A model generated the notes under the pieces. The model was not told the origin of the DNA. It saw only the letters and a program-made list of their open reading frames with translations, and searched no databases. 64,000 nucleotides of DNA from a virus, in IMG/VR virus record IMGVR_UViG_3300036719_006047, positions 64,001-128,000 of that record. One strand, 5' to 3'. The position numbers and the translations under genes are program-made. Shown piece by piece: positions 33,640 to 56,351 of this stretch; position 1 is the first letter of the stretch; each line of letters opens with the position of its first letter.

Positions 33640-34506
33640 ATGAGCAAGCACGTAGAGCACAAAATTCAGGTAGTCGAGTCGACTTACTACGCTCGCGGGG
33701 TGACGTTGTCGTTCACGACTGAGCTGTGGCGAAACGAGAGCAAATTCGATTCCGAGCATCTGCTCGAATTGTTCTCAAAAATAATCAGCATCGTCGTGAG
33801 AGAGCGCACCGAAGAAATGAACGACATCCAGCCCAGGCTGGGATGGCGCGCAAAGAGGTTGCGCTTCTGCTTGGATTTTGGGTGCAGCACAGGGCAAATC
33901 TACAAGTTCAACTCGCTGGCGAAAGACATTCACACAATACACTCAGAGGAAGAAAGCAAAGCCGAAGAGGAGAGGTTGATTTTCATCCCAGGGAACCTGC
34001 CCGACGTGATGAAGAACATGTCCGCAGGAGAGCTCATAGCGCACTCCATTGAATCGGTCGATGCGGTAGAAATCAGCGTCGACACTTTGCTCGATAAGTC
34101 GTTATACGCAGTCATCTACAATGCGACCGAGCTCAGCAAGTACCGGTCAAGTTCGATTTTGTCGAGCAAAGAAAGCATAGTCGAGGAAGTGAAAGCGGTC
34201 AGGTCCAAGATCAAAGTCTACCAAGAGAGGCAGCGCCTCAACGCTTTCCGCGCTCCTGAGAAGATTAAGGTAGAGATAAGAAACAAGCTGAGATCGCTGA
34301 CGAACAAGGCCGGGGGCACTTTCTACTACGCAGAGCACAACGCAAACGACATCAAAGTGAGACTGAAGCTGGTCGAAGAAATGCTCGAGAAGAGCGGCGT
34401 CAGCGAGGAGATGAAGAGCAATGTGCAGGCTGCTTTGAAGCGCATAGAAGCAGTTCGCGCAGAGCTGAAGGCAGTCAAAGAACTTGTCGAGAAGGAGCTG
34501 CTGTGA
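33640..34506 (+). CDS. W[RK]N-motif paralog 1
   Basis: ELWRNESKFDSEHLL; C-terminal coiled coil. Confidence 0.8.
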   Translation: MSKHVEHKIQVVESTYYARGVTLSFTTELWRNESKFDSEHLLELFSKIISIVVRERTEEMNDIQPRLGWRAKRLRFCLDFGCSTGQIYKFNSLAKDIHTIHSEEESKAEEERLIFIPGNLPDVMKNMSAGELIAHSIESVDAVEISVDTLLDKSLYAVIYNATELSKYRSSSILSSKESIVEEVKAVRSKIKVYQERQRLNAFRAPEKIKVEIRNKLRSLTNKAGGTFYYAEHNANDIKVRLKLVEEMLEKSGVSEEMKSNVQAALKRIEAVRAELKAVKELVEKELL

Positions 34507-35411
34507 CTGAAAGGGCTGACACAACCATAGTTTCGAGAAGCTTCACGATAGGCAGGCCACAAAATACAAGAACAATTTGTTTCGAGGTGTGGCGAAACAG
34601 GAGCCTTTTCGACAGCGAGGACCTGCTGAGCATCCTTTGCGGGTACTACAGCAAGTTGCTGAACTGCACGTTCGACGCTGATTTCGACCCAGAAGGCGAA
34701 GCTGCTTTCCTGGCAGGCATGCCAGAAAAAGTAGTTGTAGGCGTAGTAGCGGACTGTGTGGCCAACAACCATGCAGGCATAATTGTAATCCGGTTTGGCG
34801 AACTCACTGAGGCCGTTGTAGCGGAGAGACAGCTGGTAGAAAAGTCGACAAAAATGTTCTTCTTGAGAGTTTCGCTGCCCGACCCTCGAACTTCCCTTTC
34901 CGCGAGCGAGCTGTTCGCTGCTTCCACAGAAGAGAACGAAAGTCTGGTACTCAGCTTGAAGCAGCTCGGGATAAAAAGTCTACTCGATGCGTCTTCTGTC
35001 AGCGTGACGACGAGCATGCTGAACAAGACGTTCTTCTACCGATCAGAACTGAAAGAGAAGTTTACTCTGGTTGCGGAAGCTCTTCAGAAAGAAATACCTA
35101 CCGTTGTCGTCCACGCCAAAAAGAGGAACGTAGATGCGTTCTGCAGTGCGAGCACGAAGAGCTCGATCGCAGAGAACAGGTGCAGGCAGCTGTGGGAGTC
35201 TTCAGGGCCTCTCATGAAAGCATCGCAAGCGATCAAGAATGCTGAATTTATGTGTCTCGAAACGCAGCGACTCGCAGAAAGAGCGATGGACGCAGGGTCG
35301 AGCTCAGACGCGGTCCACAAAGTGAAGCGAATATCGAGTGAGTTAGCAGAAATCCAAAAAAGAATAGACGAAATCATCAGCGAGGCAGAGAAAATCGAAT
35401 GGCAATCGTGA
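34503..35411 (+). CDS. W[RK]N-motif paralog 2
   Basis: EVWRNRSLFDSEDLL. Confidence 0.8.
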   Translation: MTERADTTIVSRSFTIGRPQNTRTICFEVWRNRSLFDSEDLLSILCGYYSKLLNCTFDADFDPEGEAAFLAGMPEKVVVGVVADCVANNHAGIIVIRFGELTEAVVAERQLVEKSTKMFFLRVSLPDPRTSLSASELFAASTEENESLVLSLKQLGIKSLLDASSVSVTTSMLNKTFFYRSELKEKFTLVAEALQKEIPTVVVHAKKRNVDAFCSASTKSSIAENRCRQLWESSGPLMKASQAIKNAEFMCLETQRLAERAMDAGSSSDAVHKVKRISSELAEIQKRIDEIISEAEKIEWQS

Positions 35412-36367
35412 CAGCGAAGCAGCCTCTAGTGAGCGAGATTCGCTCGCTCCGAGAAGCAGGAGGCACAGGAAAAAAGATCAAGGTCAGCGTGTGGCGCAAC
35501 ACCACGATCTTTGACGCAGGCGATGTTGCTCGCCTTTGCGCGGCTGTGTCGATCTGTACACAAGAAAGCAATTACTTCATCCAAGAAGAGCCGCAAGAGT
35601 ACAAGTTCGTCTTGCTCAACAAGAAGCAGGAGAGATTCTTTGCGGTGAGTGCCTTGCAAAACGTATCGCTAGCAAAAGTAGCTGCTTGCCCTGACATGAC
35701 CTTAGAGTGGTGGTCCTCGCCTCCGGGAACCACAGGCAGTAAAGTGATCTACGCGTCGAATCAGCTGGCTCAGTCGTCTGCAGCAGAGATCGTTAGCCGA
35801 GAACTCGACTGCTCAGACCCGAAAAGGCCCTTGTTCAAGCTCACGCGAGAAGAGGTGGCTTGCGTTGTGGGAACGATGTATTACGACATTATTTCTGCCT
35901 TCGATTATCGGGAAATCAAAGACTGGCCCATCAGCAGCATAGCGAAAAAGGCATCTCCAATCCGGGAACTGTTCGGGAGAATGCGGCAAAGCGAAAAAGA
36001 GATCAACCCGAACCACCCCGTCATCGCGGGCGTGATCGATCAGATCGAGGAAATGCTGCATCCGCACCCGCTACAGCTGAGATTCGCGAAGAAGCCATTC
36101 TCTTTCAGCGTGTCCCCCGAGAGAGAAAAGCTCCAATTGCTGGAAACGAAGCTGGACAACAGGCGCTGTCGAATCATGACAGCACAAAGAAAGTTGGTTC
36201 GACTGATGAGCAGCAAAAAAGCATTCATTAGCGAACCCTGGGCGTCAGAGGGGTACGATGAAGTGTTGAAGAAGATCGAGCAGTCGTATGAACTGCTACG
36301 TGCAGCAGAGCATGAAATCAGGCTAATGACCGAAAAAGCATTCACCAAGAGGCTTGAAATCAAATGA
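35399..36367 (+). CDS. W[RK]N-motif paralog 3
   Basis: SVWRNTTIFDAGDVA; RFAKKPFSFSVSPEREKL. Confidence 0.8.
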   Translation: MAIVTAKQPLVSEIRSLREAGGTGKKIKVSVWRNTTIFDAGDVARLCAAVSICTQESNYFIQEEPQEYKFVLLNKKQERFFAVSALQNVSLAKVAACPDMTLEWWSSPPGTTGSKVIYASNQLAQSSAAEIVSRELDCSDPKRPLFKLTREEVACVVGTMYYDIISAFDYREIKDWPISSIAKKASPIRELFGRMRQSEKEINPNHPVIAGVIDQIEEMLHPHPLQLRFAKKPFSFSVSPEREKLQLLETKLDNRRCRIMTAQRKLVRLMSSKKAFISEPWASEGYDEVLKKIEQSYELLRAAEHEIRLMTEKAFTKRLEIK

Positions 36368-37329
36368 GCTACACTCCGAAAGACCCTGTCGTTGCTCCCA
36401 TCCGTGTGGAGTTCACTCCCGGCCCGTCCTTCAGCGCGAAACCCAGAAAACAAGTGGGCTTCTTGTGGAAGAACACGTCGATTTTCCACAGCGAAGATCT
36501 GTTGCGTTTGTTGCTCATCGTAGGCGCGATCACAGATGAAGACTCTCACTACGAGAATCCGAAAGAAGAAAAACACTTCGTCTTTAGTACCGACACCAGC
36601 GCAAACTGGGTCAACATCGAGCGGCCTTGGCGCAGGAGTGAGCACATGTACGACGTGTCTCCTGTGATGAAAGAATTGTTGACGGAACAACGCTCAAGCA
36701 GCTACTACTGCAAGATCGTGATTGCCACCAATCACCCGGCCAAAGAGACCAGCGCGGAGCTCTTCTCCCGAACCATCGACAACAGCGACGGCAAGTCTTA
36801 CTTCCTCCTTCGCGACGAAGAAGTGATCGAATTGGCCGTTTCTGTCGTTAACTCCATGTACAACAGGGCGTCTGCCGAACTGCAAGCTATTTTCCGGGAG
36901 ACGTTCTTCGGAGGCGTAGACATCAACAGCTTCCACAGCAGAAAATACACTGTGCAGTCTGCGCGAGAGACGTGCGCAAAAAGAGTCGAAGAATTCATTC
37001 GCATGGCCTGCGATGACAAGATCCCGAAGATCAGGTTCAGCAACAAGCAGCTCTTCTTCAGCACTTCCCCCGACAGAGAGCGGCTCGGTGAGATGCAAAG
37101 AGCCTTCAAGACGAAGGCGTACGATGTGAGAGCTGTGCGAAAAAAGTTGCTCAGCATCAAGAAGGTGTCAGAAAAGCAGCTCAAGATTGAGTTTGCAAAG
37201 GAAGCGAACGAAGCGGCAAGACAGCACTTGATCAAGGCGGCGGAAGAGTTGATGAAAGCGGAACAAGCGATGCAGCATGCGATTGACGAAGCTGCGAAGA
37301 ACTACGACAGGATCTCGGAGGTCAAGTGA
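36364..37329 (+). CDS. W[RK]N-motif paralog 4
   Basis: FLWKNTSIFHSEDLL; RFSNKQLFFSTSPDRERL. Confidence 0.8.
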   Translation: MSYTPKDPVVAPIRVEFTPGPSFSAKPRKQVGFLWKNTSIFHSEDLLRLLLIVGAITDEDSHYENPKEEKHFVFSTDTSANWVNIERPWRRSEHMYDVSPVMKELLTEQRSSSYYCKIVIATNHPAKETSAELFSRTIDNSDGKSYFLLRDEEVIELAVSVVNSMYNRASAELQAIFRETFFGGVDINSFHSRKYTVQSARETCAKRVEEFIRMACDDKIPKIRFSNKQLFFSTSPDRERLGEMQRAFKTKAYDVRAVRKKLLSIKKVSEKQLKIEFAKEANEAARQHLIKAAEELMKAEQAMQHAIDEAAKNYDRISEVK

Positions 37330-38267
37330 AGAAAACTAACCCACAATCAGCAGAGCACAAAGGCCACACAGCTTTCGTCTGGAAGAACAACTCCAACCTG
37401 TACGGGCCCGACTTGGCGCGGTTCGTGTTAGGCGTCATGTCTGTGTCGAATGAGCGCAAGTGCAGAGAGAGCGAAGAGGACAAGGAAGTTCACTTGATCT
37501 TGTTGTCCTCGAAGAGGCTAAACAAGGTTCAAACCGTTGGCAGTTACAGCCCTCTGCTGACGAAAAAGATGGTCGCAAGCTGCCCCAACATGCTGTACAT
37601 GCTTGAGGGGGCGGGTCAGTTGCACTTCAATCACAGGATCTTCCACGTTCCCGACAGGTACTCAGAAGAATCGCACTCACAGAAAATCACGAGAAGGATG
37701 AGCAAAGAAGGCAAGTTAGACCTCTTCAGCCTCAACGGAGAGGAAATCGTCGACATAGCCATAGCGGTATTGAAGTACAGTTGGAACAGCTTGCCGTATG
37801 AAGGCACAAAAGAATTTTGCGATACTCTTGGCGTAGCGGCAGACGTGATGGCTCGCCTTCTGAACATCTCATGCCTCGAAACGTACTTTTACGACAGAGA
37901 GGTAGTTGAGTTCAGGCAGAATCTGGGAGACAAACTCCTCGCAGAGTTCAATGTCACGCGCATCGAAGACATCAACCTCCGCTTCAGGTACCGCAAGTTC
38001 AGCTTCCACACTTGCAGAGACAGGGAAAGAATCAAGGAAGAGAACCAAGTACTGCTCAAAGACTGGCAAAATTTGAAGCAGAGTGCGAAGTACATCAAAA
38101 TCTGCATCGAAAGGAAGCTCAGCGCTTTTGCAGGAGCGGCTGCGATCGAGGAATTTGAAGCGTCAAAGCCATTGCTACAAGAAGCTTTGCTCAATCTCCA
38201 CAAGGCTATGCAGGCCTACGAACTCACCAACAACAAACTCCGGGATGCCTACGATGCGACTCTCTGA
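37326..38267 (+). CDS. W[RK]N-motif paralog 5
   Basis: FVWKNNSNLYGPDLA; FRYRKFSFHTCRDRERI. Confidence 0.8.
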   Translation: MKKTNPQSAEHKGHTAFVWKNNSNLYGPDLARFVLGVMSVSNERKCRESEEDKEVHLILLSSKRLNKVQTVGSYSPLLTKKMVASCPNMLYMLEGAGQLHFNHRIFHVPDRYSEESHSQKITRRMSKEGKLDLFSLNGEEIVDIAIAVLKYSWNSLPYEGTKEFCDTLGVAADVMARLLNISCLETYFYDREVVEFRQNLGDKLLAEFNVTRIEDINLRFRYRKFSFHTCRDRERIKEENQVLLKDWQNLKQSAKYIKICIERKLSAFAGAAAIEEFEASKPLLQEALLNLHKAMQAYELTNNKLRDAYDATL

Positions 38268-39369
38268 TCTGGCTGATGTCATCTTCTCCACTTGGAAGCA
38301 CAACCCCACTCAGTCCATCTTCGTCATGGGGCCGCCCGGCATCGGCAAGACCTCTGTCGCGGCCGCCGTTGTGGATCGCATCCGAAAGTACAACACAGAC
38401 AACAACGTCCAGGGCCCCGTCGTCTGCCACATCAAGGACCTGTCGTCTTCGTTGCCCGAAGACCTCAACGGTCTGCCGAAAACGGACGGCGAGGTGATGC
38501 GCTTCGTTCCCGACACCTGGCTCGCCGAGTGCTGCAACCCTGAAGCCTCCGGCATCCTCATCCTCGACGACCTGCCGGCAGCGACTGCTTCCATTCAGGT
38601 GGCAGCGCGTCAGCTCGTTCTCGACAAGCGCATCCACGAGCACAGGCTGTCCAGCAAAGTCATCGTTGTCGTAACTGGCAATCGTCGTGAGGACGCTTCT
38701 GCGGCCAAGACACTCCCCGCTCACTTCCGCAACTCCGTGTTGACGCTCGAAGCTGAGGCGAACTTGGCGGACTGGACTTCGTGGATGCGCTCCAAGGACG
38801 CAGACCGCTCCGTGACGGACTTCCTGGCCTTCCGGCCGCAGCACTTCTCTCGGCTGCCCGTCAATGCCGACCAGCGCGGGGTGTTCGCAACGCCTCGTAC
38901 CTGGAAGATGCTGTCCGACCTGATGCCGGTCGCTCTCGAGACCAAGAAGCTGTTCGAGATCAGCGCCGGTCTCGTTGGCGAGGGTGTGAGCGCGGAGTTC
39001 GTGGCCTTCAAGGACATGAGTGATGCGCTGCCTGACCCCAAAGCCGTGCTCGAAGACCCCTACAAGCACTACCCCAGCAACCACGACATCTGGTCCAACC
39101 GCCCCGACTTGATGGTTGCCGTGCTGTCGGGCATCTCGTACTACGCAGGCAAGGCCAAGAAGACAAAAGACTTTGTTCCTGTCGACGCTTACGTGAAGGC
39201 TGTTGCCTACTTGTGTTCCCGGTCCACCGAGTACTTCGAGTTCGCTTTCCAGGCTTTCCGCGACAGTGGCGGTCGCGAAATGGCTTTCTTGACGGCCGCG
39301 CAGCAGCTGTCGACGACTGACTCGCGTGTGGCCCAGCTCAAGGCCAAGCTCCGTGAGGTGTTCGCGTGA
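38254..39369 (+). CDS. MoxR-like AAA+ ATPase, copy A
   Basis: GPPGIGKT, PEDLNGLP, LILDDL, TGNR, FATPRTW. Confidence 0.9.
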   Translation: MRLSDLADVIFSTWKHNPTQSIFVMGPPGIGKTSVAAAVVDRIRKYNTDNNVQGPVVCHIKDLSSSLPEDLNGLPKTDGEVMRFVPDTWLAECCNPEASGILILDDLPAATASIQVAARQLVLDKRIHEHRLSSKVIVVVTGNRREDASAAKTLPAHFRNSVLTLEAEANLADWTSWMRSKDADRSVTDFLAFRPQHFSRLPVNADQRGVFATPRTWKMLSDLMPVALETKKLFEISAGLVGEGVSAEFVAFKDMSDALPDPKAVLEDPYKHYPSNHDIWSNRPDLMVAVLSGISYYAGKAKKTKDFVPVDAYVKAVAYLCSRSTEYFEFAFQAFRDSGGREMAFLTAAQQLSTTDSRVAQLKAKLREVFA

Positions 39370-40538
39370 CTAGCAGAGAAGAGACTTTCGCTCGTTTCTC
39401 GAAGGCGAGAACTTGGTTGATCGGCCGGATGCCTTTCTTCGGGCACCTGGCTCTCAACCTCAAGCTCGATCCTGTGGCCGGGGAAGATCAAGGAGTAGAA
39501 ACGGCTTGCATCTACCCGACGGGTGAACTCATCCTCAACGACAAGTTCGTCGCGTCGTTGACCGATGCTCACTTCAGGTTCGTTCTGGCCCACGAAGTGC
39601 TGCATCCAGCATTGTTGTGCCATGTGCGCCGCAAGGGCAGAGATCATCTCGTCTTCAACATGGCGCACGACTACGCCATCAACTTGATCATCACAGAGGC
39701 AGTCGAAACGGCAAAAGAGCACAACAACTGCTGTATGCCGCTCAAAGGGCTCATCGATAACGCTTACAAAGGCCTTTCCGCAGAAGAAATCTACGACAAG
39801 CTGTTGGAGAAAGCAAGCATCGCTTATTACGCAAAAGGAGGCTTCGATCAAGACGTCGCAGAGAAAGAAGCCAAGACTGAGGACAAGGAGCAAGACAGCA
39901 TCTGGAAAATGCGTCTCGCGGCTGCGAGCGTAGCGGCTTCTCGCTCGAAGAGAGGCAACATTCCTGCCGGGTTGCAGAAGATCATACAAGAGATTTTGCA
40001 GCCCCAGGTGTACTGGCTTGATGTTCTCGCGGAGTACGTGTCGGGTTGTTTGGGCGGAGACATTTTCACTTACAGCAGGCTGAACCGCCGGTCAGAGGGC
40101 GCAGGATGCATCCTGGCCGGAAAGATCAGCGATGAGATGCCCGAAGTGACAGTGTTGTGGGACACGAGCGGTTCGCAGCAGGGGTGGGAAGACACCGTTT
40201 TCGCGGAGCTGAAAAAGCTGCAAGATGACATGGCGGTGCCCTTCCGGCTCATGATCATCGATACCGTGTTGTACGCAGACATGATGGTAGACGACGTCGA
40301 CGATACTCTTTCACAGCTCAAAGGTGGCGGCGGCTCCGACTTCAAACCCGCTTTCGAGAAGCTCGAGCAAGAGAACAACCAGTCAGTCGTCATCGCATTC
40401 ACAGACGGCGCGATCGGTGTGCCAGAGACACCGCCACCGTTGCTCAAAGATGTCATCTGGGTGCTGACGGGACACTATTCGAGCCCCCCGGCACAGTACG
40501 GCCGCTCGATCTACATCGAGAAAGGAAAGTCGAAATGA
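39366..40538 (+). CDS. DUF2201-type metallopeptidase-vWA protein, copy A
   Basis: HEVLH (HExxH), N.AHDYAIN, WDTSGS, GGGGSDF, FTDG. Confidence 0.88.
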   Translation: MTSREETFARFSKARTWLIGRMPFFGHLALNLKLDPVAGEDQGVETACIYPTGELILNDKFVASLTDAHFRFVLAHEVLHPALLCHVRRKGRDHLVFNMAHDYAINLIITEAVETAKEHNNCCMPLKGLIDNAYKGLSAEEIYDKLLEKASIAYYAKGGFDQDVAEKEAKTEDKEQDSIWKMRLAAASVAASRSKRGNIPAGLQKIIQEILQPQVYWLDVLAEYVSGCLGGDIFTYSRLNRRSEGAGCILAGKISDEMPEVTVLWDTSGSQQGWEDTVFAELKKLQDDMAVPFRLMIIDTVLYADMMVDDVDDTLSQLKGGGGSDFKPAFEKLEQENNQSVVIAFTDGAIGVPETPPPLLKDVIWVLTGHYSSPPAQYGRSIYIEKGKSK

Positions 40539-41323
40539 AAGAAGGCGATGCCATCACGCACTTCGACAACTCTTTGCTAAACCCAGAACTGGAGGGAAAT
40601 CCGAAATACTGCTTCCGGATTCGAGTGATCGGCAACAACACAGAGCTGAGCACACAGCACGTAGAGAACACGGTCAACAACGCGCTGCGGCTTGCCTGCG
40701 AAGAAGACAAGCTGCCCGCTTCTGTGTCAGAGAAGCTTGAGCCGGTTTACACGCTGTTGGTGCTGAACCGGTTGAGACGAACAAGCAAGCGGGACTGGCA
40801 GTTGTCGCGGTTTGTTGAAAGCTGTCGCCTGTTCGCCAAGGTGAGCTCCATTTACGCCCTGAAACAGGTAAAGCCAAAAATGAGAGTGTCACCTGCTCTG
40901 TTTGTGTTGGACGTGTTTGACGCATCAAAGGTCTTCAGCGCGTCAGAGCTGATCGCTTTTTCTTCTCCCACAGGACTTGTTGTCCCCGGTAGTGAGATTG
41001 CAGGGCTTGCGTCATACGTGCTGCAGAGGCTCGAAAACCCCGACGATGTCAGATTTAAGCGGCGAGATGAGATACTGGTCCGAGTGTGCGCGGAAGCTCT
41101 GATTGCGACAAGGAAGCCGAAGCAAGAAGGTGTAACCGCCAAAGAAGCAGTAGCACTCGGCAAGAAAATCGCAGCGCACCGCACTCGGCGGCTGAAGATG
41201 GAAAGGCTGCAGAAGAACTTGAGAGAAGCACAAAGAACCCTAGCAAAGCTGTCCCGAGATAGCCGCAACGATCTCAAGCAAGACATGAAAGACTTCTACA
41301 CAAAGGGGACTCGCAAGAGATGA
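40535..41323 (+). CDS. Hypothetical protein with basic coiled-coil C-terminus
   Basis: ATGA overlap, 262 aa. Confidence 0.75.
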   Translation: MKEGDAITHFDNSLLNPELEGNPKYCFRIRVIGNNTELSTQHVENTVNNALRLACEEDKLPASVSEKLEPVYTLLVLNRLRRTSKRDWQLSRFVESCRLFAKVSSIYALKQVKPKMRVSPALFVLDVFDASKVFSASELIAFSSPTGLVVPGSEIAGLASYVLQRLENPDDVRFKRRDEILVRVCAEALIATRKPKQEGVTAKEAVALGKKIAAHRTRRLKMERLQKNLREAQRTLAKLSRDSRNDLKQDMKDFYTKGTRKR

Positions 41324-41904
41324 ACGACCGCACGTACCGCTTCCCTCTGAAAAAAGGCGCGAAGCTCAAGGAAGACAACGGCTACGCTCTGTTGGCGGGA
41401 TTGACCTCCATCGCTCCGTTCCTTCACGGCAGGGAGAGTGTCCAGATCGCACCTATCGCGGGATCTCGCGTCAGCAGCGGTGTTCTCGTGACTGACGCAC
41501 GAAGCAAACTGCAGGTGAGAGGCATCACCCGGGAAGAAGCTGAACTGCTCCAGAAAAAGACTTTTCACGTTTCGGGAGAGGAGGTTGAGACTGGCCTGTT
41601 CCAGGAGGTGAAGTTTGCGTTCTTCCCCTGCTTGGCTTCTCGCCTTGTGATCTTCCGAGATGTGTTCAGCAAAGAGCAGTTCATCGAGAAGGTCAAAGAA
41701 GTTGCAAGGTCAGGCGATGTGGAGCTGGGGCGCCGGAGAGTGTTGACTCTCAAGAACAACAGCATGATCGGCTTCAGCGTGGTTTTGAAAGGACTGAAAG
41801 AAGAAGATTCGATCCGACTTCAGGCGGAAGGGATGGGCAAGTTCACGTCGATGGGTTGCGGGGTGTTTCACCACTTCCGACCGAACAGCACTCAACTGCG
41901 ATAA
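41320..41904 (+). CDS. cas6: Solitary Cas6/Cmx6-like protein (type I-B/Myxan family)
   Basis: DNGYALL (family DHGYALY), LHG..., LASRLV, LGRRRVL.LK...IGFSV, LQAEGMGKFTSMGCGVF (GhGxxxxxGhG loop). Confidence 0.85.
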   Translation: MNDRTYRFPLKKGAKLKEDNGYALLAGLTSIAPFLHGRESVQIAPIAGSRVSSGVLVTDARSKLQVRGITREEAELLQKKTFHVSGEEVETGLFQEVKFAFFPCLASRLVIFRDVFSKEQFIEKVKEVARSGDVELGRRRVLTLKNNSMIGFSVVLKGLKEEDSIRLQAEGMGKFTSMGCGVFHHFRPNSTQLR

Positions 41905-41984
41905 GCGGCAGAGGTAGACGATGAAAATGAACTTTGATTGTGTGCCGGAAGAGATGCTGTAGCCCCTGCCTGGAGGAACTGGAA

Positions 41985-42596
41985 ATGAAGTCAGTCGCTC
42001 ATCCGAAAATCCGCACCATGTGTGAGATGGCTTGCCGGATTCGAGACATGTACGGGTACAAGTGGGTCTTGCACAAACCCAAGCACATCGAATGGCTGTT
42101 GTCCGACTCTCCCATCGGCCCATTTTCGCTCAAGTTGACGGGAAGAAAGAGGAGCAACTTTGTAGTGCTGTTATCGGCCGGTCCTTTCGACGGATGGACC
42201 GGAGGCAGCGAAACCTGCCCCGAAGAGCAAAAGTACTACGCAGCTCTGATCCACGAGATGAGCCACCTGACGCTCATGGATGGTTCTCCTGAAGACATGG
42301 GCACCGAAGAAGAAGGTGTCGTGCTCGAGACCGCGTGGCTTGATGCTTTGAGACCGACAAGGGAGATCAGAGCCGGGTACCGGGAGTACTCTATCGACAA
42401 AACAGAGATAGTCATAGACTACGAGAAGTGGGCCACCATGAACTACTCCGATATTCGAGGCCCGAAGAAGATGAAGTGGTGGGAGGAAGCACAGAAAATT
42501 TTGATCGAGAAAGGCGTCTTGACCAAAGGTGGCGCCCCGACCTGGAAGCGTACGAGGATGGGAGATGCCAAACACTCTGCCCGAAAATTGGTTTGA
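41985..42596 (+). CDS. Hypothetical HExxH metallopeptidase-like protein
   Basis: LIHEMSHL...E motif; GGAGG RBS. Confidence 0.65.
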   Translation: MKSVAHPKIRTMCEMACRIRDMYGYKWVLHKPKHIEWLLSDSPIGPFSLKLTGRKRSNFVVLLSAGPFDGWTGGSETCPEEQKYYAALIHEMSHLTLMDGSPEDMGTEEEGVVLETAWLDALRPTREIRAGYREYSIDKTEIVIDYEKWATMNYSDIRGPKKMKWWEEAQKILIEKGVLTKGGAPTWKRTRMGDAKHSARKLV

Positions 42597-42831
42597 GGTA
42601 ACACCAGCCTGCTACGAGTACAGGTGCTTTCCGTTCGATACGGACAAATACGGCAAACCGAAGCCGGGAACAGCATACCTCACTGTCGTTACGGTACAGA
42701 AGCGAGAAAACTCTATCGAGGTCAGCATAGACTCTTTTTCCGGAGGCTACGCTGACGGAGCAGCCGCACTGTCGACAGAGATACCGTTAGAGATTATAAA
42801 TCGCTTGATAGCAAGCAGACCGAAGGAGTGA
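42565..42831 (+). CDS. Hypothetical protein
   Basis: 88 aa; its 3' end lies in the 99-bp repeat. Confidence 0.7.
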   Translation: MPNTLPENWFEVTPACYEYRCFPFDTDKYGKPKPGTAYLTVVTVQKRENSIEVSIDSFSGGYADGAAALSTEIPLEIINRLIASRPKE

Positions 42832-42871
42832 CCGCATGACCCGCTCCCTGATCCCTTTCCTGGCTGTCGTT
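42773..42871 (+). repeat. 99-bp direct repeat, copy 1
   Basis: 97/99 identical to 44972-45070. Confidence 0.95.
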
Positions 42872-44971: not shown

Positions 44972-45070
44972 CGACAGAGATACCGTTAGAGATTATCAAT
45001 CGCTTGATAGCAAGCAGACCGAAGGAGTGACCGCATGACCCGCTCCCTGTTCCCTTTCCTGGCTGTCGTT
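44972..45070 (+). repeat. 99-bp direct repeat, copy 2
   Basis: Contains a remnant gene end (TEIPLEIINRLIASRPKE*), RBS and the first 12 codons of 45035. Confidence 0.95.
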
Positions 45071-46907: not shown

Positions 46908-48065
46908 ATGCTTTTGTCGCTGTTCGTAGTGCTGTCCCTGTCCGCACAGGCGAGAGATATCACACACTACTTTGCCGCTTGCAAAGACGGTTCACTGCAC
47001 TACGTAGGGCACGAAAAAGAAATGACTTTTGAGGATGCAGAGAGAAGCGGGTGGTCTCTCTGTGATATGTTTATTTTGTCAGATAGAGGCGAAAATAACT
47101 ACAGAGGAATATACAGCAGGCAGGCGCCGCACAATGATTACAAGAAGATTTTTTATGAGCTGACTTTAGCCTACGAAAAGAAAGTTTACTTAGAGATACA
47201 GGAAAAGATTGCTTACAGAGAGCAGCAGAAAAGGCTGGAGGATGAGCGCAAAGCTGATTTAGAATTAGAAGAGAGGCGAGATTGTTCCCGAAAGAAAACA
47301 AAACCCGCAATAGTTTATGCCTGCCCTTTGGGCTCTTATGCTTTACACCCTTCAAACTGTGAAGTTGTCATAGGTCACGTTTCTACGGGCGCTCATGCGG
47401 TTGAACTCGATACAGGAATAAAAATACTTCCAGAAGGCCAGTCTTGTCAAATTTCAGGAAAAACTATTGATAGTGCTTACTTAGACGAAGCTTTGCTGTG
47501 TTCTGTAAACAACAACTGTTCTCGCAATGTTGTTCCTCTGACTATAAGTGTGGATTTAAAGGAACCGCTCAAAAAAGCAAAGGAAGATTGGTCCAGAGCT
47601 GACCAAGAAAACGAAAAGAAAAAAACATATGATTGTCTCGCTGGTGTGTGTTTAAATGCGCCCGCATCAAGTATTTCTTCTAAGTTAGTCACAGTTTCAG
47701 AAGTGGTCATGCACAGAGCGGTAGAAGTTTGCTCTGGTCGAATCGTTCGCATCAGACTGTGGGCAGGTTGGGTCGAAGAGGGCTATGGGGGTTGGGTAGA
47801 CGTTCTACCAGGTGCGCAACACAAAGGTTACAACTACGGCGCGGAAAAAGCGAACAATCACATGGTTCAAATGGATAGTGAATTGGCAAAAATGGGGTGG
47901 GTAGTCGGCTGGCACAAGGAAAGACGAGTACACCCAAGCAAAATGGGTTGGCGTATAATAGAAAGCGCAGAAGGAGGCAACGGCGGAAGTTGGTTAGTAA
48001 GCCTTGAGTCGATTCATGCCGACCACCTTACCCTTTGCGAGCAAAAACGACAAGAGGGACTTTAG
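46908..48065 (+). CDS. Secreted protein with C-terminal YDCLAGVCLN domain
   Basis: Signal peptide; GGAGG RBS; AT-rich codons. Confidence 0.8.
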   Translation: MLLSLFVVLSLSAQARDITHYFAACKDGSLHYVGHEKEMTFEDAERSGWSLCDMFILSDRGENNYRGIYSRQAPHNDYKKIFYELTLAYEKKVYLEIQEKIAYREQQKRLEDERKADLELEERRDCSRKKTKPAIVYACPLGSYALHPSNCEVVIGHVSTGAHAVELDTGIKILPEGQSCQISGKTIDSAYLDEALLCSVNNNCSRNVVPLTISVDLKEPLKKAKEDWSRADQENEKKKTYDCLAGVCLNAPASSISSKLVTVSEVVMHRAVEVCSGRIVRIRLWAGWVEEGYGGWVDVLPGAQHKGYNYGAEKANNHMVQMDSELAKMGWVVGWHKERRVHPSKMGWRIIESAEGGNGGSWLVSLESIHADHLTLCEQKRQEGL

Positions 48066-48138
48066 GTTAGACCTTGTGCAAGCGAGGAGGGCTCGGAGCT
48101 TACTTTGACATCAACAAAACGTTTGCGGGGAAGAAGTA

Positions 48139-49239
48139 ATGCAGTACGTCATGATACCTTTCGCGTTCGACACGCGCGTGAAGCCAGAAGCTCTCTACAA
48201 CAACAGCATCCAGCCTGAAGCCAAGATGGACTTCTTCCCGGCGAAGGTTGTCGGATTCTGTATCGACCCGGGCAAGAAGATTGAGGTGATTGTCGAAGCC
48301 ATCATCGACACCAGCCAAACCCAGACGGGTCGGTTCTACGACGTGCCGTTGAGCTTCCTGGGGAACGACAGGGAAGCAGGCATGTCCTACGACAACCTTG
48401 CTCCCGACACGAAAGAAGTGCCCTTCTACACAGCCGAGACTTGGGTGAGGATGGTCAACGTCTACCGCGAGGGCCGAGTTATTGAAGGAAACAGGGTAGG
48501 AAGCCTCACCTGGAACTACGCAGACGTGACGCTCAACATCGTGGTCACGTCAGCAGGAACAGTCATCATCGCCCCGCCCCACAAGATCACAGTCGGTTAT
48601 CACCCGACTTTTCTGCCGTCTTGGATGCGGAAGCGTTACGATGACAGCCAATTTCCTCTCGAGCTGACTCGAGTGTATGACCCGCCGAAGAAGAAGGCTG
48701 AAGAAGCAAGAAAACTTGCTGTTCGTGCTCTGGAGTCCGACGAAGGTTGGAGGTCTCACGGCTTAGGGCTTATCCAGAAGTATGTAGACGGTCTTCGTGT
48801 TCATGTCTGGTCGAAGGGCGACGTGAAGATCGGGCTCAACGGAGGCATCCACAACCACCGCTACTCGCTCAACAGCATCGTGGTTCTGGGCGTCATCACG
48901 CAGGAGGAGTGGGAAGCTACAGAAAATCCGAAAGGGATGTGGTCGGAGTTCCGCCACGACAACGCTACCTGGGAAGTAGAGTTTACGGGGAAGAGGTATG
49001 ACTTGACCCCAAGGACGCAAGATATTTACGCAGGTCAGATGTACTCTTTCCCGCGTCACTGCTTCCATCGCACACTTCCCAGAAGCGAGATTGCAATTAC
49101 AGTGGTGGACCGGGAAGGTGTTGAGGGCAAGTCTTGTGCTTTGGCTCCTTTGGGGGTCAACATCGTCAACGGGCAGTCGATTGAGCTGGACGTAAAGAAG
49201 ATTGTCAGCTCGGCTCGAAAGCACCTGGGGGTAAAGTGA
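48139..49239 (+). CDS. Hypothetical protein with C-terminal cupin-like domain
   Basis: IHNHRYSL.S.V..G ... Y.F....FH. Confidence 0.6.
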   Translation: MQYVMIPFAFDTRVKPEALYNNSIQPEAKMDFFPAKVVGFCIDPGKKIEVIVEAIIDTSQTQTGRFYDVPLSFLGNDREAGMSYDNLAPDTKEVPFYTAETWVRMVNVYREGRVIEGNRVGSLTWNYADVTLNIVVTSAGTVIIAPPHKITVGYHPTFLPSWMRKRYDDSQFPLELTRVYDPPKKKAEEARKLAVRALESDEGWRSHGLGLIQKYVDGLRVHVWSKGDVKIGLNGGIHNHRYSLNSIVVLGVITQEEWEATENPKGMWSEFRHDNATWEVEFTGKRYDLTPRTQDIYAGQMYSFPRHCFHRTLPRSEIAITVVDREGVEGKSCALAPLGVNIVNGQSIELDVKKIVSSARKHLGVK

Positions 49240-49658
49240 GTGCAACGCCCAAGTACCTCTACTGCATCGAAGCCAAGCTGTCCGATAACCGTTGGACCAC
49301 GGTCGTAGGGGAGCAGGACGGGTCACTTGAATACATGCGCGGCCGCTTCGATGCATTTCGAGAGAGGCCAGGCCCGCAACCTGCCTTCCGTCTCTTGCGG
49401 ATGAACGTTAAAGACGCTTCCGCAGGCGCCAAGGTATTGTACGAGATCCACGAAAAAACTGAGCTTTCTGTAGGCGCGATGCCACAAACAGTCGGGTTTC
49501 AGTGGTCGAGGTATGCCAGTGCTGCGGCTGACGCACTTCACACGGCAGCGCATGATGTTCGATATGCGGCCCGAAACAACCCCGAGCTGCAACAGCATCA
49601 CGAAAAACTCATAGCTCTCGCCTCCGAAGTAGAGAGACTTCTGCCGACAAGTGGTTAA
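49236..49658 (+). CDS. Hypothetical protein
   Basis: GTGA overlap, 140 aa. Confidence 0.7.
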   Translation: MSATPKYLYCIEAKLSDNRWTTVVGEQDGSLEYMRGRFDAFRERPGPQPAFRLLRMNVKDASAGAKVLYEIHEKTELSVGAMPQTVGFQWSRYASAAADALHTAAHDVRYAARNNPELQQHHEKLIALASEVERLLPTSG

Positions 49659-49682
49659 GAGGTAAGGCAGAGAGGTATAAGT

Positions 49683-50474
49683 ATGGAAGGCGAAGAAAAT
49701 CTGCTTGAGTCACCTGATTTGACTTTCATTTTGGGTGACACGACGTCAGTGTGTTCGGCGCTACCCGACGAGAGCTTCAGTCTCATACACTCAGACTTGC
49801 CGTTCAATACGGGGAGAGTGCAGAAGGGTAGTGCCGGGCAGTACGAAGACAAGTTTGACGACTTCAGTGCCTGGTTGACGGAACAAGTCACGCTTTACCG
49901 TAGACTTCTGGCTCCGAAAGGTGTGCTTGCTCTACAGCTTGATGACAGAGAGTATGTAACGCTTCGGTCTGTGTGCAACGCAGTTATGGGACCTGAGAAC
50001 TACAGAGGTACGCTGATCTGGCATTACGACACAGGGGGTCTTGCGAAGAACTGGTGGTCGATGAAGCACCAGTACATCGTGCTCTACGGTTCAGGCAAAG
50101 AGGAACCTGTCTTTCACGCAGACCAAGTGCCTCTGGTGCCACGAAAAGCTCTTCCAAAGAAAGTCGTAAACGCGGCCGGAGAAGAGAAGGTTTACGGCGG
50201 AGACAAAAGGCTTTGCTCTGTGTGGAACATGAACTGGTCCACGACAGACCCACAACGGTGCGGTTACCCGAGTCAAAAGCCTTCTTCGCTCGCAGAGACC
50301 TTAATCCGAGTGCATACGAACGAAGGTGATTGGGTGCTTGATCCTTGTTGCGGTTCAGGCACGACAGGCTTCGCGGCTCATGCGCTGCGCAGAAATGCAG
50401 TGATCGTCGACAAAAACCCAGAAGCTCTTCTTTCTGCAAAAGCAAGAGCCAAGAAGAAGCAGGAGACAACGTGA
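49683..50474 (+). CDS. Solitary beta-class N6-adenine/N4-cytosine DNA methyltransferase
   Basis: Motif IV SDLPF(N), YPSQKP, motif I VLDPCCGSGTT. Confidence 0.88.
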   Translation: MEGEENLLESPDLTFILGDTTSVCSALPDESFSLIHSDLPFNTGRVQKGSAGQYEDKFDDFSAWLTEQVTLYRRLLAPKGVLALQLDDREYVTLRSVCNAVMGPENYRGTLIWHYDTGGLAKNWWSMKHQYIVLYGSGKEEPVFHADQVPLVPRKALPKKVVNAAGEEKVYGGDKRLCSVWNMNWSTTDPQRCGYPSQKPSSLAETLIRVHTNEGDWVLDPCCGSGTTGFAAHALRRNAVIVDKNPEALLSAKARAKKKQETT

Positions 50475-50758
50475 ACGCGGCAGAGAAAGTCGCCAAGATC
50501 AGAGAAGCGCAAAAAGATCTATTCCTACAGGAGATGCGGATCAGGGCAGAGATCGAATGGGTAATCAACGAGGAGTTTGGGGCAGAGTACGAATCGTTGG
50601 TTTCCTTGGCCCACATGCAACAAGGAGTTTTGCTCGGAGCGAACAAGATAACTATTTTCTTGTCTACGGGACCCCCTTTAGCTTCGCAGGAAATCCTCCA
50701 GCAAAAGATGAAGAATGTTGAGCAGAAGACTGGAATTCCAACAGTACTTGGGCTGTGA
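50471..50758 (+). CDS. Hypothetical protein
   Basis: AGGAG RBS, GTGA overlap. Confidence 0.7.
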   Translation: MNAAEKVAKIREAQKDLFLQEMRIRAEIEWVINEEFGAEYESLVSLAHMQQGVLLGANKITIFLSTGPPLASQEILQQKMKNVEQKTGIPTVLGL

Positions 50759-50798
50759 CCACGACTGAACCGCAAACACAATAGGCAGGAAGAAAGTT

Positions 50799-51182
50799 AT
50801 GCCGATCTACGTGTGTTCTGATGGCAATGGTGTGCTCGAGATCGAGGCGGATAGCGGGGAAGCAGCCGCCCATGATTACGTCGACGGAGGCGAGTGGGGC
50901 CACAACAACAAAACCTTCTGGATCAACGTCCGCGTCACCGAGAAGGGCACCAACGACACTGAGCTTCACAAGATCGAAGTGGAACCCGAGGAGCCCGAGT
51001 GTGAGGACGGCAACGATCACCACTGGCGTGAGGTTTCGATGAGGGGCAACGCAGGCGGCGTGATTACCACGTCTCGTTGTGTGCATTGTGGCAAGGAAGT
51101 GACAGTGAACACCTGGGATTACGATCCGCAAGATGGACAGCAAGCACTTTGCAGCGTCGAGTACGGGATGCAGGAATGCTGA
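50799..51182 (+). CDS. Hypothetical acidic protein with C..C motif
   Basis: 127 aa. Confidence 0.75.
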   Translation: MPIYVCSDGNGVLEIEADSGEAAAHDYVDGGEWGHNNKTFWINVRVTEKGTNDTELHKIEVEPEEPECEDGNDHHWREVSMRGNAGGVITTSRCVHCGKEVTVNTWDYDPQDGQQALCSVEYGMQEC

Positions 51183-51745
51183 TCGCTTTCTCTGGTAAGA
51201 AGGGAGCAGGCAAGGACACTTGTGCGGTCATCCTCGACTTCATCGCAAAGTCGGAAGGGATGCAGACCTACACTGTTGGCTTTGCTGATGCGATGAAGAG
51301 CATTCTCGGCATGATCTTCCGGGTGAACCCAAAGATCTTTTACGACAACAAGGACACGCCCAACGAAAGCCTCAAAGGCAAGACGCCCAGAGGTGTGCTG
51401 ATCTCTTTCGCCAAGTGGGTGCGGGAGACCAAGGACGACGCTTGGGTGTCTCACGTGCAAGTGGCACTTGAGAGTTTGGGTGGTCCTGACAAGCTCAATA
51501 TGGTGACGGACTTGAGGCACGTCATCGAATACGAGGCTCTTCGAGGCAAAGGAGCCATCCTCGTTCGAGTCATCCGTCCTGGCACGGAGAACGAAGACGA
51601 CATCTCAGAGACCGCGCTCGACGACCACGAGTTCGACTACGTCGTCTACAACAACGGCACAATCTTAGACCTCACGAAGACTCTCCAGAAGTTGTGGCAG
51701 GACATCAAAGACAAGGAGCAGGAACATGCACTTTCTTTCTCCTGA
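51176..51745 (+). CDS. Deoxynucleoside monophosphate kinase
   Basis: FSGKKGAGKDT, FADAMK, TPR, VTDLR...E, SETALD. Confidence 0.88.
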   Translation: MLIAFSGKKGAGKDTCAVILDFIAKSEGMQTYTVGFADAMKSILGMIFRVNPKIFYDNKDTPNESLKGKTPRGVLISFAKWVRETKDDAWVSHVQVALESLGGPDKLNMVTDLRHVIEYEALRGKGAILVRVIRPGTENEDDISETALDDHEFDYVVYNNGTILDLTKTLQKLWQDIKDKEQEHALSFS

Positions 51746-52814
51746 AGAGATTATGGAAAAGTTCGGCGGCACCTTTTCCGCTTCGGAGAAGAAAAGCTTC
51801 TGGAAGTGGCGTGAAGAAGGAAATCAGTTTTTGCAGCCCTTCACAGAGAGGATCGTGCGCTCGCAGCAAATGGGTTTCCCTCGGTCTGCCGACAGCGTGC
51901 TGCGTGATTGGCGAGAGAGCATGCCGCGACCCGATAATGGGTACGCGGAAGCTCGCTTCAAGCGATGGCCGGACTACGCGAAGGACTGCCAAAGAGCAGT
52001 CGTCTTGAGATCTGCCGAGCACTACGACAAAACACATTGCATAGGCTTTGTGACGGCCGACGGCAACGTGAAGCATGAAGTCTTCTTCTGCAAGAAATCA
52101 GGAAGACACTGGAACCGAAAACTCGGTCATTCCAAGCATCACGCTTGGCTCGACGTAGAAGCAACCAGAAGGAATATCACAACCGAGGAAAGGACGACGC
52201 AGGAAAGGCGGAGCTTCTTCGATCTGTTCCCGTCTGCGTGTTCTCGAGAAATCAAGTTCAAAGCCCTTCATTCCTTGGGCGGGTGGGCTTGTTTTCTTCC
52301 GACGGACGAAGGCATGGCCATCGAGGGTGGATTCTTGCCTTGCCCAGAGCCACACAGGCCCAAGGGTGTTTATCTCTACCAGCTACGAAGCAAGAAGTAC
52401 GCGAGAAGCAATGAGTTCAACGAGATGCTGTGGGGCTGGCGGTACGCTTCGCCTGAGATCACAGAAGAAGAGCTCAAAGCTGCCTCGCTGTTCCGCCCTC
52501 CCACACCAGAGCAGGAAAGAGCAGAGTTTTACACCCGAGGGCAACTGGAAGAGCTTGCGACCAAGCTCGGAGTTGAAGCCGCGGTCAACGCGAATGGTTG
52601 GTTGCAGTTGACGTGGAAAGGCATTTACGGCAAGTACATCTTGGGCGTTGTTGTGGACGGCAAGACTCACCTAACGGAAGAAAGAGAAGTGCTTGACCTG
52701 CTCGAGAAAGAGTTGAACGCTTCTACCGAAAAAGCGAAAGCCGACATCGCCAAGTTGCAGGAAGGTCTTTCTGGTGACCTGAGTTTGCTCGAAAAGATTC
52801 GATCTTTGCGTTAG
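51726..52814 (+). CDS. Hypothetical protein
   Basis: AGGA RBS, 362 aa. Confidence 0.75.
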   Translation: MHFLSPEEIMEKFGGTFSASEKKSFWKWREEGNQFLQPFTERIVRSQQMGFPRSADSVLRDWRESMPRPDNGYAEARFKRWPDYAKDCQRAVVLRSAEHYDKTHCIGFVTADGNVKHEVFFCKKSGRHWNRKLGHSKHHAWLDVEATRRNITTEERTTQERRSFFDLFPSACSREIKFKALHSLGGWACFLPTDEGMAIEGGFLPCPEPHRPKGVYLYQLRSKKYARSNEFNEMLWGWRYASPEITEEELKAASLFRPPTPEQERAEFYTRGQLEELATKLGVEAAVNANGWLQLTWKGIYGKYILGVVVDGKTHLTEEREVLDLLEKELNASTEKAKADIAKLQEGLSGDLSLLEKIRSLR

Positions 52815-52839
52815 TCTGTACGAGCACTCTGGAGGTCCC

Positions 52840-53082
52840 GTGGCGAAAGCGAACTACATCTTCCTCTTGGAACGTCTCGAAGGGGGGACGTGGGATTCAG
52901 TGTACGAAGTAGTCGCAATCGGACCAGACGAAGAGACTGTTCGTGAGATGGTGCTCGAAAAGTTTGATTACGACCCAAGCAGGTGGCCCACCTGGGAAAG
53001 CGGTGTCGAGGTGAAGAAAGTCGGAATCGCCTTCCCAGGTGAGGGGCCTCGCATACTCACCTACTACCAAACGCATGGATGA
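52840..53082 (+). CDS. Hypothetical protein
   Basis: GGAGGT RBS, 80 aa. Confidence 0.75.
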   Translation: MAKANYIFLLERLEGGTWDSVYEVVAIGPDEETVREMVLEKFDYDPSRWPTWESGVEVKKVGIAFPGEGPRILTYYQTHG

Positions 53083-53608
53083 AACAATGGCAAAGTACAA
53101 GTTCACGATCGAGATTGACGAAGAGATGCTTCAGCTGATGCTCGAAGCGCTCGAGTTCTACGAGCGTGTCGTGGGGCTCGGGCAGATCGAAGAGGTCGGT
53201 TACGCCTACAGGATCAAAAAGAAACTCACGACTTCTTGGACAGAGCACAACGAGAGGATGAAGATCGCGGATCTCGCGCTCGACACGTTCAAGATGGCCG
53301 TTGTCGGAATGCCGCGGAACCAAAGCCACGGTATCTACAGCCCCGAGGTGAACGACAACATCAAGAAGATGTACGACATGTACAAGACCTTGCGCAAGAG
53401 CCTTGCAGAGTCCCGATTGCGCGAGGCGATCGAAGCAGGGAACACAGAAACTGCCAACCACTTGAGGATGACGGTAGACATGCAAGGCTTCAGCGGCGTC
53501 TACTTCTCAGAGCCGCCCGTGCATGTCAGTTTCGTGCCCATGGCGCAAGAATCTCAGGCCGAGCCCGAAGAGGTGAACGATGCAACTCCCGAAGAAGTCG
53601 AACCTTGA
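53075..53608 (+). CDS. Hypothetical protein
   Basis: 177 aa. Confidence 0.75.
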   Translation: MDETMAKYKFTIEIDEEMLQLMLEALEFYERVVGLGQIEEVGYAYRIKKKLTTSWTEHNERMKIADLALDTFKMAVVGMPRNQSHGIYSPEVNDNIKKMYDMYKTLRKSLAESRLREAIEAGNTETANHLRMTVDMQGFSGVYFSEPPVHVSFVPMAQESQAEPEEVNDATPEEVEP

Positions 53609-53825
53609 CGCTTACGTGCTTCGAGGCCGAGATCCAAACCAGTTAGACGCTTCCTTTTGGGAGGGACAAGAAGCAGCAAAGAACGCGCTCAAGCCATTCC
53701 GAGATGTTCGGTATGAGCTTCTGAGAGTGCAGGTAAACGACAACGTGGTTTGGGCTCTCGACCAAGTGTGGGTCACACTACCCACAGGCAAAGTCAACTA
53801 CATTCCCGAGGTGGATGATGCGTGA
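53580..53825 (+). CDS. Hypothetical protein
   Basis: GAGGT RBS. Confidence 0.6.
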   Translation: MQLPKKSNLDAYVLRGRDPNQLDASFWEGQEAAKNALKPFRDVRYELLRVQVNDNVVWALDQVWVTLPTGKVNYIPEVDDA

Positions 53826-54009
53826 CGACGATATGAAGTTTCAGGATCCGGGCGGTCGCTCTGCTCTGCGCCGGGCAAGCAAGAGCAATCCGAGAAAGTA
53901 TCCTTGTCCGACCTGCAAACAGCCTGACCGACTGACCCCTGCGGATGTTCGGCTTGGTTACCAGTGCGATACTTGTGCAGACAAGTTGGAGATGGGATGG
54001 GACTACTGA
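53815..54009 (+). CDS. Small zinc-finger protein
   Basis: CPTC...CDTC. Confidence 0.7.
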   Translation: MMRDDDMKFQDPGGRSALRRASKSNPRKYPCPTCKQPDRLTPADVRLGYQCDTCADKLEMGWDY

Positions 54010-54167
54010 AAAAGGTGTTTGTGTGGTGCACTCGATGCCACGGTTCGGGTATCTCCTACACGACGCCCGGCAACAAGCCTGCCGATGGGCCTGATGATTG
54101 CCCTGCCTGCAGAGGCATGGGTCAAGTCGAGCAGCTTGTCGACGAAACAGACCCGGAACAAGATTGA
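53997..54167 (+). CDS. Small DnaJ-type zinc-finger protein
   Basis: CTRCHGSG...CPACRGMG. Confidence 0.65.
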   Translation: MGLLKKVFVWCTRCHGSGISYTTPGNKPADGPDDCPACRGMGQVEQLVDETDPEQD

Positions 54168-54628
54168 GTGTGAAAAAGCTGTTCGCGACGGGTGTGCACG
54201 AGCCCGTTGCGAACATACTTCCCGGTAAGTTCTTCTATTGCAGCATGTCCTTTTCGTATGCGGCGCTACGCGAGTACCCGAAGCTGACTGAGCAGCTCAC
54301 TCGAATGAGCGATGGCTTGCAACAGCCGAAAGTATCCTTCTGGCGAGAAGACCTCGAGCCAGGAGGTCACTTCGGGCCGACGCGAATGCACGTAGATGGG
54401 AAAGGGGACATTTCTGAGATCCACAGATTGTTTATCGTAGGCGGGCTTCCCACCGAAGCACACGACGGAAGCTTGTTACAGACAGGAGCTGTGTGGGAAT
54501 ACTCAGGTGACTTTGTTCACCGCGGCTTACCCGTCACGCAACCTTGTCAGCGCCTGATGCTGAGAGTGTCACAAACAACAATGCACACGAGGGAGACGTT
54601 TTGCTTGAGAACAAAGCACAAGAAGTGA
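54164..54628 (+). CDS. Hypothetical protein, possibly a double-stranded beta-helix fold
   Basis: MHVDG ... HRG...R.MLR pattern. Confidence 0.55.
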   Translation: MSVKKLFATGVHEPVANILPGKFFYCSMSFSYAALREYPKLTEQLTRMSDGLQQPKVSFWREDLEPGGHFGPTRMHVDGKGDISEIHRLFIVGGLPTEAHDGSLLQTGAVWEYSGDFVHRGLPVTQPCQRLMLRVSQTTMHTRETFCLRTKHKK

Positions 54629-54900: not shown

Positions 54901-54901
54901 T

Positions 54902-56276: not shown

Positions 56277-56291
56277 CATCGGCCAACCAGC

Positions 56292-56319
56292 TTGACTCCC
56301 CGTGACGCAGAGTTAGAAT
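56292..56319 (+). promoter_or_regulatory. Sigma70-type promoter
   Basis: TTGACT-16 nt-TAGAAT, followed by a hairpin abutting the RBS. Confidence 0.6.
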
Positions 56320-56351
56320 TCTCACGCCCACTTTCGGGCCGTGAGGAAGAT

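Follow-up and report, generated by a model that had tools for sequence, protein, structure and literature searches.

In type I-B CRISPR-Cas systems, Cas6 stays on the 3' handle of the crRNA as a subunit of Cascade. One passage in the literature describes type I-B as the most abundant CRISPR subtype (PMC13199841), and there are precedents for Cas proteins that work against it. Cas5-like and Cas8b-like proteins of Listeria phages join a defective type I-B Cascade and are inhibitory (10.1101/2023.06.24.545427). In Thermus thermophilus, an active but non-cognate Cas6 competes with the type I-B Cas6 during Cascade assembly; the resulting complexes cannot bind target DNA, and type I-B interference is suppressed (PMC12102369). 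Katz et al. screened IMG/VR for cas genes found without arrays or operons and put forward 358 orphan genes of this kind from viruses as candidate anti-CRISPRs, while also discussing the possibility that some viral cas genes stimulate immunity (10.1101/2023.06.24.545427; later Nature 2024).

One row of Table S3 in that catalogue gives a 'cas6' at 105341-105868 of IMGVR_UViG_3300036719_006047, a virus from Lake Mendota freshwater (10.1101/2023.06.24.545427). This virus record, from an uncultured phage, is a single linear contig of 136,910 bp, about 85% complete, and carries phage hallmarks that include RIIA-like genes, MoxR/VWA genes, and a nine-gene tRNA cluster. The window analyzed here is the 64,000-nucleotide stretch spanning bases 64001-128000 of the record; positions below are those of the window unless they are called genome positions. 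The phage open reading frame of interest lies at genome positions 105320-105904, with its Pfam domain at 105353-105871. Given this frame, the catalogued interval is in frame with it and covers residues 8-183, approximately the span of the Pfam domain. From this coincidence of coordinates it is very likely that the exact gene has been catalogued before, and the phage cas6 is very probably the one listed by Katz et al.

An earlier, sequence-only reading of the window had called this frame a Cas6 with likeness to Cmx6, and that observation proved real, since profile matches, predicted fold, and structural and sequence neighbors all point to Cas6. The Pfam family PF09559 (Cas6) matched the protein with an E value of 2.9e-32 and 112.7 bits, well above the cut-off of 26.7, over profile positions 8-187 of 191, or nearly full length. 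The NCBIfam model TIGR02807 (cas6_cmx6, the type I-MYXAN Cas6/Cmx6) scored 103.6 bits, above its cut-off of 98.85. In PADLOC, several of the Cas6 models matched as well, with E values down to 2e-33. An AlphaFold2 (AF2) model built from 31 input sequences had a mean pLDDT of 92.9 and presents the double ferredoxin-like (RRM) fold of Cas6, with a glycine-rich loop at the C-terminus. When this model was compared with the PDB using Foldseek, the best matches were all Cas6 chains, headed by 8fcu_B (E 2.3e-17, TM 0.83). This chain and 8fcj_B, both Cas6 from a type I-B CAST Cascade, matched with E values of about 1e-17 and are 28-29% identical to the phage protein, and a sequence search led to the same CAST Cascade Cas6, in agreement with Foldseek. 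Judged by profiles and predicted structure, the gene encodes a genuine and intact Cas6 of the Cmx6/PF09559 class, that of type I-B (Table 1).

Table 1. Features of the phage cas6 gene and its surroundings (window positions)
Feature	Position	Strand	Basis
Five tandem paralogous genes (288-322 aa), operon head	33640..38267	+	Pairwise BLASTP, alignment
MoxR-like AAA+ ATPase, then DUF2201 metallopeptidase/VWA protein	38242..40538	+	Pfam AAA, DUF2201_N, DUF2201; PHROG 1297, 1314
262-aa coupled ORF upstream of cas6	40535..41323	+	11% identity when aligned with paralogs
cas6 (Cmx6/PF09559 class), orphan, 194 aa	41320..41904	+	Pfam, NCBIfam, PADLOC, AF2 model, Foldseek
ATGA start/stop overlap of upstream ORF and cas6 (translational coupling)	41320..41323	+	Sequence read and ORF coordinates
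DNGY codons (D19-N20-G21-Y22; family majority DHGY)	41374..41385	+	Column counts
His36 codon	41425..41427	+	His in 147/150 representatives; kept in phage
Glycine-rich loop GMGKFTSMGCGVF (residues 171-183)	41830..41868	+	Column counts
ORF of 220 aa with HExxH motif (HEMSH), directly downstream of cas6	41934..42596	+	Sub-threshold Aspzincin_M35 match only

Within the assembled sequence, the phage Cas6 is solitary. The claim that the 64 kb holds no other cas gene and no array extends to the whole record: a six-frame search of the 136,910 bp found a single PF09559 match, and Cas7b, Cas5b, Cas3b, Cas1, and Cas4 gave no match in this approximately 85% complete sequence. Likewise, the Cas3, large-subunit, Cas7, and Cas5 proteins encoded by related loci (described below) had no tblastn match in the record, seed-based scans revealed no spaced CRISPR-like repeats, and Rfam reported nine tRNAs as its only matches, the CRISPR-DR family being absent. 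Three repeats from the loci of related Cas6 proteins were also compared with the full 137 kb; the best alignment had 24 of 36 matches, within the 22-26 obtained with shuffled sequences, so that the CRISPR-repeat-like sequence expected of a Racr or solitary repeat unit was not found in the phage genome. The record therefore contains neither co-located Cas3, Cas8b, Cas7, and Cas5 genes nor a repeat-spacer array. The gene is a viral counterpart of a single Cas subunit and lacks the cognate system, as is characteristic of Cas-derived anti-CRISPRs (Acrs).

At genome positions 47,000-61,500, upstream of the window, repeats recur densely with a period of 15 nt, their spacings being multiples of 15. 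This sole periodic region, at genome 47-61 kb, was considered as a CRISPR array and rejected in favor of coding periodicity.

Such isolation bears on the rather improbable reading that the phage Cas6 serves a pro-CRISPR role, either by processing a phage mini-array located in sequence missing from the assembly or by boosting host crRNA maturation against competing phages. The linear, incomplete record and the apparently intact enzyme would be consistent with it, as would the stimulation of immunity by viral cas genes raised by Katz et al. (10.1101/2023.06.24.545427). In cellular relatives, however, Cas6 lies only 0.2-6 kb from other cas genes or an array, while the phage gene has nothing CRISPR-like in approximately 105 kb upstream or 31 kb downstream.

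The sequence-only reading had drawn attention to two sequence features, DNGY at residues 19-22 and GMGKFTSMGCG at residues 171-181, and both are found in the protein. It had also taken DHGY and a basic GGRR as the family norm, which agrees with the column counts. An exhaustive profile search collected 567 relatives of the phage Cas6, and the best 150 representatives were aligned. At position 20, His was present in 109 of these (73%), Asn and Ser in 11 each, and Cys in 4, and the loop reads G-R-R in most of the best 150. The phage protein departs from the majority in having Asn20 at the DHGY position. It belongs, however, to a subclade of 42 representatives in which position 20 is His in 17, Asn in 10, Ser in 7, Gly in 3, and Cys in 2, and in which the loop follows GxG-K/R-F/Y/H-T-S-M-G-C-G rather than GxG-G-R-R. 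Residues T176 and S177 mark this subclade, being present in 39/39 and 37/39, respectively, of its non-phage members. His20, at 109/150 in the family and 17/42 in the subclade, is therefore not family-defining, and since DNGY and a non-basic loop occur across the subclade, they are characters of the subclade and not phage-specific changes.

What is nearly constant in the family has been retained by the phage. Tyr22, shared by 137/150 of the best representatives, is kept together with the other family-invariant residues His36, Arg67, Arg108, Gly151, Ser164, and Gln168; the Arg139/140 positions are likewise kept, as are the loop glycines G171, G173, G179, and G181, which are nearly invariant in the alignment. 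Wherever at least 75% of the sequences in the subclade, or in the rest of the family, agree on a residue, the phage protein has that residue. In the AF2 model His36 directly follows helix alpha1 (residues 21-31), a location comparable to that of the catalytic His in canonical Cas6 (PMC3652601). From alignment and model, it is likely that the family-invariant His36 is the catalytic residue of the phage Cas6. It should also be considered that Cas6 active sites are plastic, with some active enzymes having no canonical His altogether (PMC3652601).

The genomic context of the subclade was obtained from six metagenomic loci encoding its Cas6, five of which extend past the cas6 gene. In all five, type I-B cas genes adjoin cas6, and three also have an array. 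The L004 locus encodes Cas3b, an unrecognized large subunit of 532 aa, Cas7b, Cas5b, and a DSGY-bearing Cas6, followed by ten 37-nt repeats. The L005 locus has a DHGY-bearing Cas6, then Cas3b, the large subunit, Cas7, and Cas5, with approximately 25 repeats after them. In L006, the order is Cas3, Cas8, Cas7, Cas5, and Cas6, and the array that comes next is cut off by the end of the contig; DNGY and GLGKFTSMGCG occur together in the L006 Cas6. The two remaining loci have the order Cas(7)-Cas5-Cas6, with DCGY in L007 and DNGY in L002. The Cas6 proteins of L004-L007 are 36-40% identical to the phage Cas6 and have the TSMGCGVF loop in common with it; their residue 20 is Asn, Ser, Cys, or His, where the phage has Asn. 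Their genes differ from that of the phage in standing in Cas3b/large subunit/Cas7b/Cas5b operons by arrays of 36-37-nt repeats, and in a GC content of 58-68%, compared to 54.5% for the phage cas6. The CAST Cascade Cas6 of the solved structure 8FCJ also reads DNGY.

These findings bear most directly on the suggestion that the phage protein is a cleavage-impaired derivative, a catalytically dead binder in which the His-to-Asn change leaves an RNA-binding protein that sequesters pre-crRNA. This now seems highly unlikely. The predominance of His at position 20 in the family and the loss of the usual Arg-Arg from the phage loop speak for it; against it, Asn, Ser, or Cys at this position and a K-F/Y-T-S loop are native to the subclade in complete type I-B loci beside arrays, the L006 Cas6 combines both features, the CAST enzyme has DNGY, and the invariant His36 is kept in an active site of a kind known to tolerate even the absence of a His (PMC3652601). 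The sequence-only reading had itself named a high frequency of Asn among active homologs as the observation that would speak against it. This is largely what was found, as seen in the 10 of 42 subclade members with Asn, the pairing of DNGY with GKFT in L006, and the DNGY of the CAST protein, with the activity of these homologs presumed from their context. The replaced histidine is, on alignment evidence, ordinary variation within the subfamily. What stands of that earlier account is a true Cmx6-class Cas6, orphaned, in a translationally coupled phage operon; the histidine and loop argument for lost cleavage is not supported.

The related loci have unusual features of their own. The large subunit, of about 530-545 aa, is encoded at 6980-8578 of L004, 11542-13173 of L005, and 4373-5791 of L006, and no PADLOC Cas8 model matched it in any of the three. 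In the L005 array (14755-16433) the repeat occurs in two forms, …GACCGTGAAGG… and …GACCGAAC/TAGG…, and the spacers alternate between approximately 24 nt and 36-38 nt. When 185,579 GTDB species genomes were scanned twice, with the subclade motifs TSMGCGVF and QIAPVRGTR, no confirmed relative of the subclade emerged. These loci may represent a variant of type I-B that has been little described and comes from uncultured organisms. A search of the phage with 34 spacers from the L004, L005, and L006 arrays gave no match, the longest agreement being 14-16 nt.

Several observations indicate that cas6 has long resided in the phage under purifying selection, and it is retained in related phages. Two relatives of the phage Cas6 from other assemblies, 95% and 87% identical, have the same length of 194 aa and are intact, and the substitutions are conservative at 8 of 10 positions in the former and 21 of 25 in the latter. 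The gene has a GC content of 54.5% and a GC3 of 67.7%, matching the flanking phage genes. In a quick and mostly unresolved tree, the phage trio formed one clade nested among other family representatives, with a stem branch of 1.14 that is not unusually long beside the median terminal branch of 0.93. Together with the retained residues, composition, relatives, and stem length suggest long residence and purifying selection rather than decay or recent pickup. They also weigh on the possibility that cas6 is a functionless passenger acquired from a host. Such a passenger would explain why the genome offers no demonstrable target or partner; its fully ameliorated composition, translational coupling, intact frame, conservative substitutions in the 87-95% relatives, and full set of family-conserved residues nevertheless make this explanation improbable. 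Single-protein scans with Cas6 and both flanking ORFs, and an alignment scan, found no related phages in IMG/VR, and 50,697 GenBank phage records contained no PF09559-type Cas6.

The cas6 gene is the last in a run of overlapping or abutting plus-strand genes (33640-41904), in the order of five paralogs, a MoxR-like ATPase, a DUF2201/VWA protein, a 262-aa protein, and cas6. That it is coupled into a phage operon, as had been claimed, is borne out by the ATGA in which its start overlaps the TGA stop of the upstream ORF. No promoter-like or plus-strand terminator-like site flanks cas6. The MoxR ATPase/VWA pair is common in phages. The 262-aa ORF matched nothing in Pfam, NCBIfam, PADLOC, or PHROG and had no pairwise BLASTP match to the paralogs; from its alignment with them, it is possibly a sixth, remote member of this phage-specific family. 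The product of the ORF directly downstream of cas6 may, from its motif, be a small metallopeptidase-like protein. Among the neighbors of cas6, no recognized defense or anti-defense family was found in Pfam, PHROGs, or PADLOC.

The five paralogs share the motif W-[RK]-N-x-[ST] in their N-terminal part and a coiled coil in their C-terminal part; their homologs are confined to close relatives of the phage. With the candidate sixth member, they bracket the MoxR ATPase/VWA pair. The idea that they are hidden RAMP or Cas7-like proteins was considered and rejected: Atlas returned nothing above chance and there was no family match, an AF2 model with a pLDDT of 70.7 had no Foldseek match at E ≤0.001, and VIA-align matched coiled-coil segments only, with Z below 7.

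Elsewhere in the window, a second ATPase-sized ORF is followed by a DUF2201/VWA gene (PHROG 1314, E 2.8e-56) at 57537-59950, and a 59-nt stretch of the first ATPase gene (38452-38510) is 93% identical to one in this second ORF (57771-57829). A 99-nt direct repeat, 98% identical between its copies at 42773-42871 and 44972-45070, encloses a 2.2-kb segment with a gene encoding an FGE-sulfatase domain (GC 63%) together with a small hydrophobic ORF; the two copies may have arisen by duplication of a leader or may delimit an inserted cassette. Three copies of a structured leader, 160-175 nt long and approximately 90% identical, lie at 769-2015 in an island of 66-70% GC beside the tRNA cluster. Each copy ends in AGGAG...ATGACC, and no likeness of these leaders to type I-B repeats was seen.

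The operon setting raises an alternative independent of host CRISPR, in which Cas6 acts as a sequence-specific endonuclease or RNA binder on the phage's own transcripts and might process or stabilize polycistronic mRNAs or structured RNAs. Coupling of cas6 into a large operon of phage-specific genes rather than an anti-defense island is consistent with this, as are the sequence-predicted catalytic integrity of the enzyme, the structured leaders repeated in the genome, and its tRNA cluster. Against it, the 137 kb has no repeat-like sequence above the level of shuffles (24/36 vs 22-26), a search for a dispersed family of short hairpins found none, and the three leader repeats carry no repeat-like 3' tag. 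A role on the phage's own RNA is considered unlikely.

The reading favored here, though tentatively, is that an intact phage Cas6 recognizes and probably cuts the type I-B repeats of its host and acts as an anti-CRISPR by subunit mimicry. It would recognize, and probably still cut, the repeat hairpin of the host type I-B CRISPR transcript. Once on the host repeats, it would fit the host Cas5, Cas7, and Cas8 poorly, and crRNAs would be diverted into defective complexes or kept out of Cascade. Inhibition would come through competition and not through loss of catalysis; given the Thermus and Listeria phage precedents, the phage Cas6 need not be catalytically dead to inhibit. Reading the gene as a Cas-derived anti-CRISPR is a previously published idea and, with those precedents, a reasonable hypothesis. 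It draws on the intactness and orphan status of the gene, its maintenance in the phage, the type I-B surroundings of the five related loci, and the precedents themselves. Several findings count against it. The gene stands in a long operon rather than a small acr-aca cassette, there is no promoter-like site nearby, and its neighbors (a paralog family, MoxR ATPase, VWA protein, and HExxH protein) include no recognized anti-defense gene. Also against it are the absence of the subclade from the GTDB motif scans and the failure of spacers from related arrays to match the phage.

It is conceivable, if somewhat doubtful, that this protein would be the first Cas6-derived Acr, a catalytically competent mimic that takes hold of the repeat hairpins of host type I-B and disrupts the assembly of Cascade; in a more speculative variant, it would form a previously undescribed RNA-processing module together with the phage-specific six-paralog/MoxR/VWA operon. 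If a lone viral Cas6 does block type I-B immunity, the subunit of crRNA maturation would join the Cas proteins that phages have co-opted against CRISPR, and the phage would also have provided a compact RNA binder specific for repeats. For now, the gene adds one more case to the orphan cas genes of viruses, very probably one catalogued already.

Among proteins of known structure, the phage Cas6 most resembles the CAST type I-B Cas6 (8FCJ/8FCU), with which it shares the fold (TM 0.83), the profile family, DNGY, His36, Tyr22, and the loop glycines; the loop itself reads G-K-R-K in the CAST protein and K-F-T-S in the phage. Compared with type I-B Cas6 in general, the phage gene differs in standing in a non-CRISPR operon without partner cas genes or an array. 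It is like other orphan viral cas genes in being a homolog of a single type I-B subunit outside any array or operon, and like AcrIB3 (Cas5-like), AcrIB4 (Cas8b-like), and AcrVIA2 (Cas3-like), all Cas-derived Acrs, in being virus-encoded. It differs from the tested Acrs of Katz et al., which include no Cas6, and searches of its neighbors in Pfam, PHROGs, and PADLOC recognized no acr gene. Racr (PMC10651486) and the role proposed for the phage Cas6 concern the same step, that of Cas6-repeat recognition and Cascade assembly. Racr, however, is a decoy made of RNA and relies on the Cas6 of the host (PMC10651486), whereas the phage, in which no repeat-like RNA was found, would bring a protein. The Cas6-2 of Thermus thermophilus HB27 differs in being host-encoded, in belonging to a type III system and another Cas6 family, and in having an effect shown by experiment (PMC12102369). 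Nevertheless, its mode of action, in which an active, non-cognate Cas6 gives rise to non-functional Cascade (PMC12102369), is the mechanism proposed for the phage Cas6.
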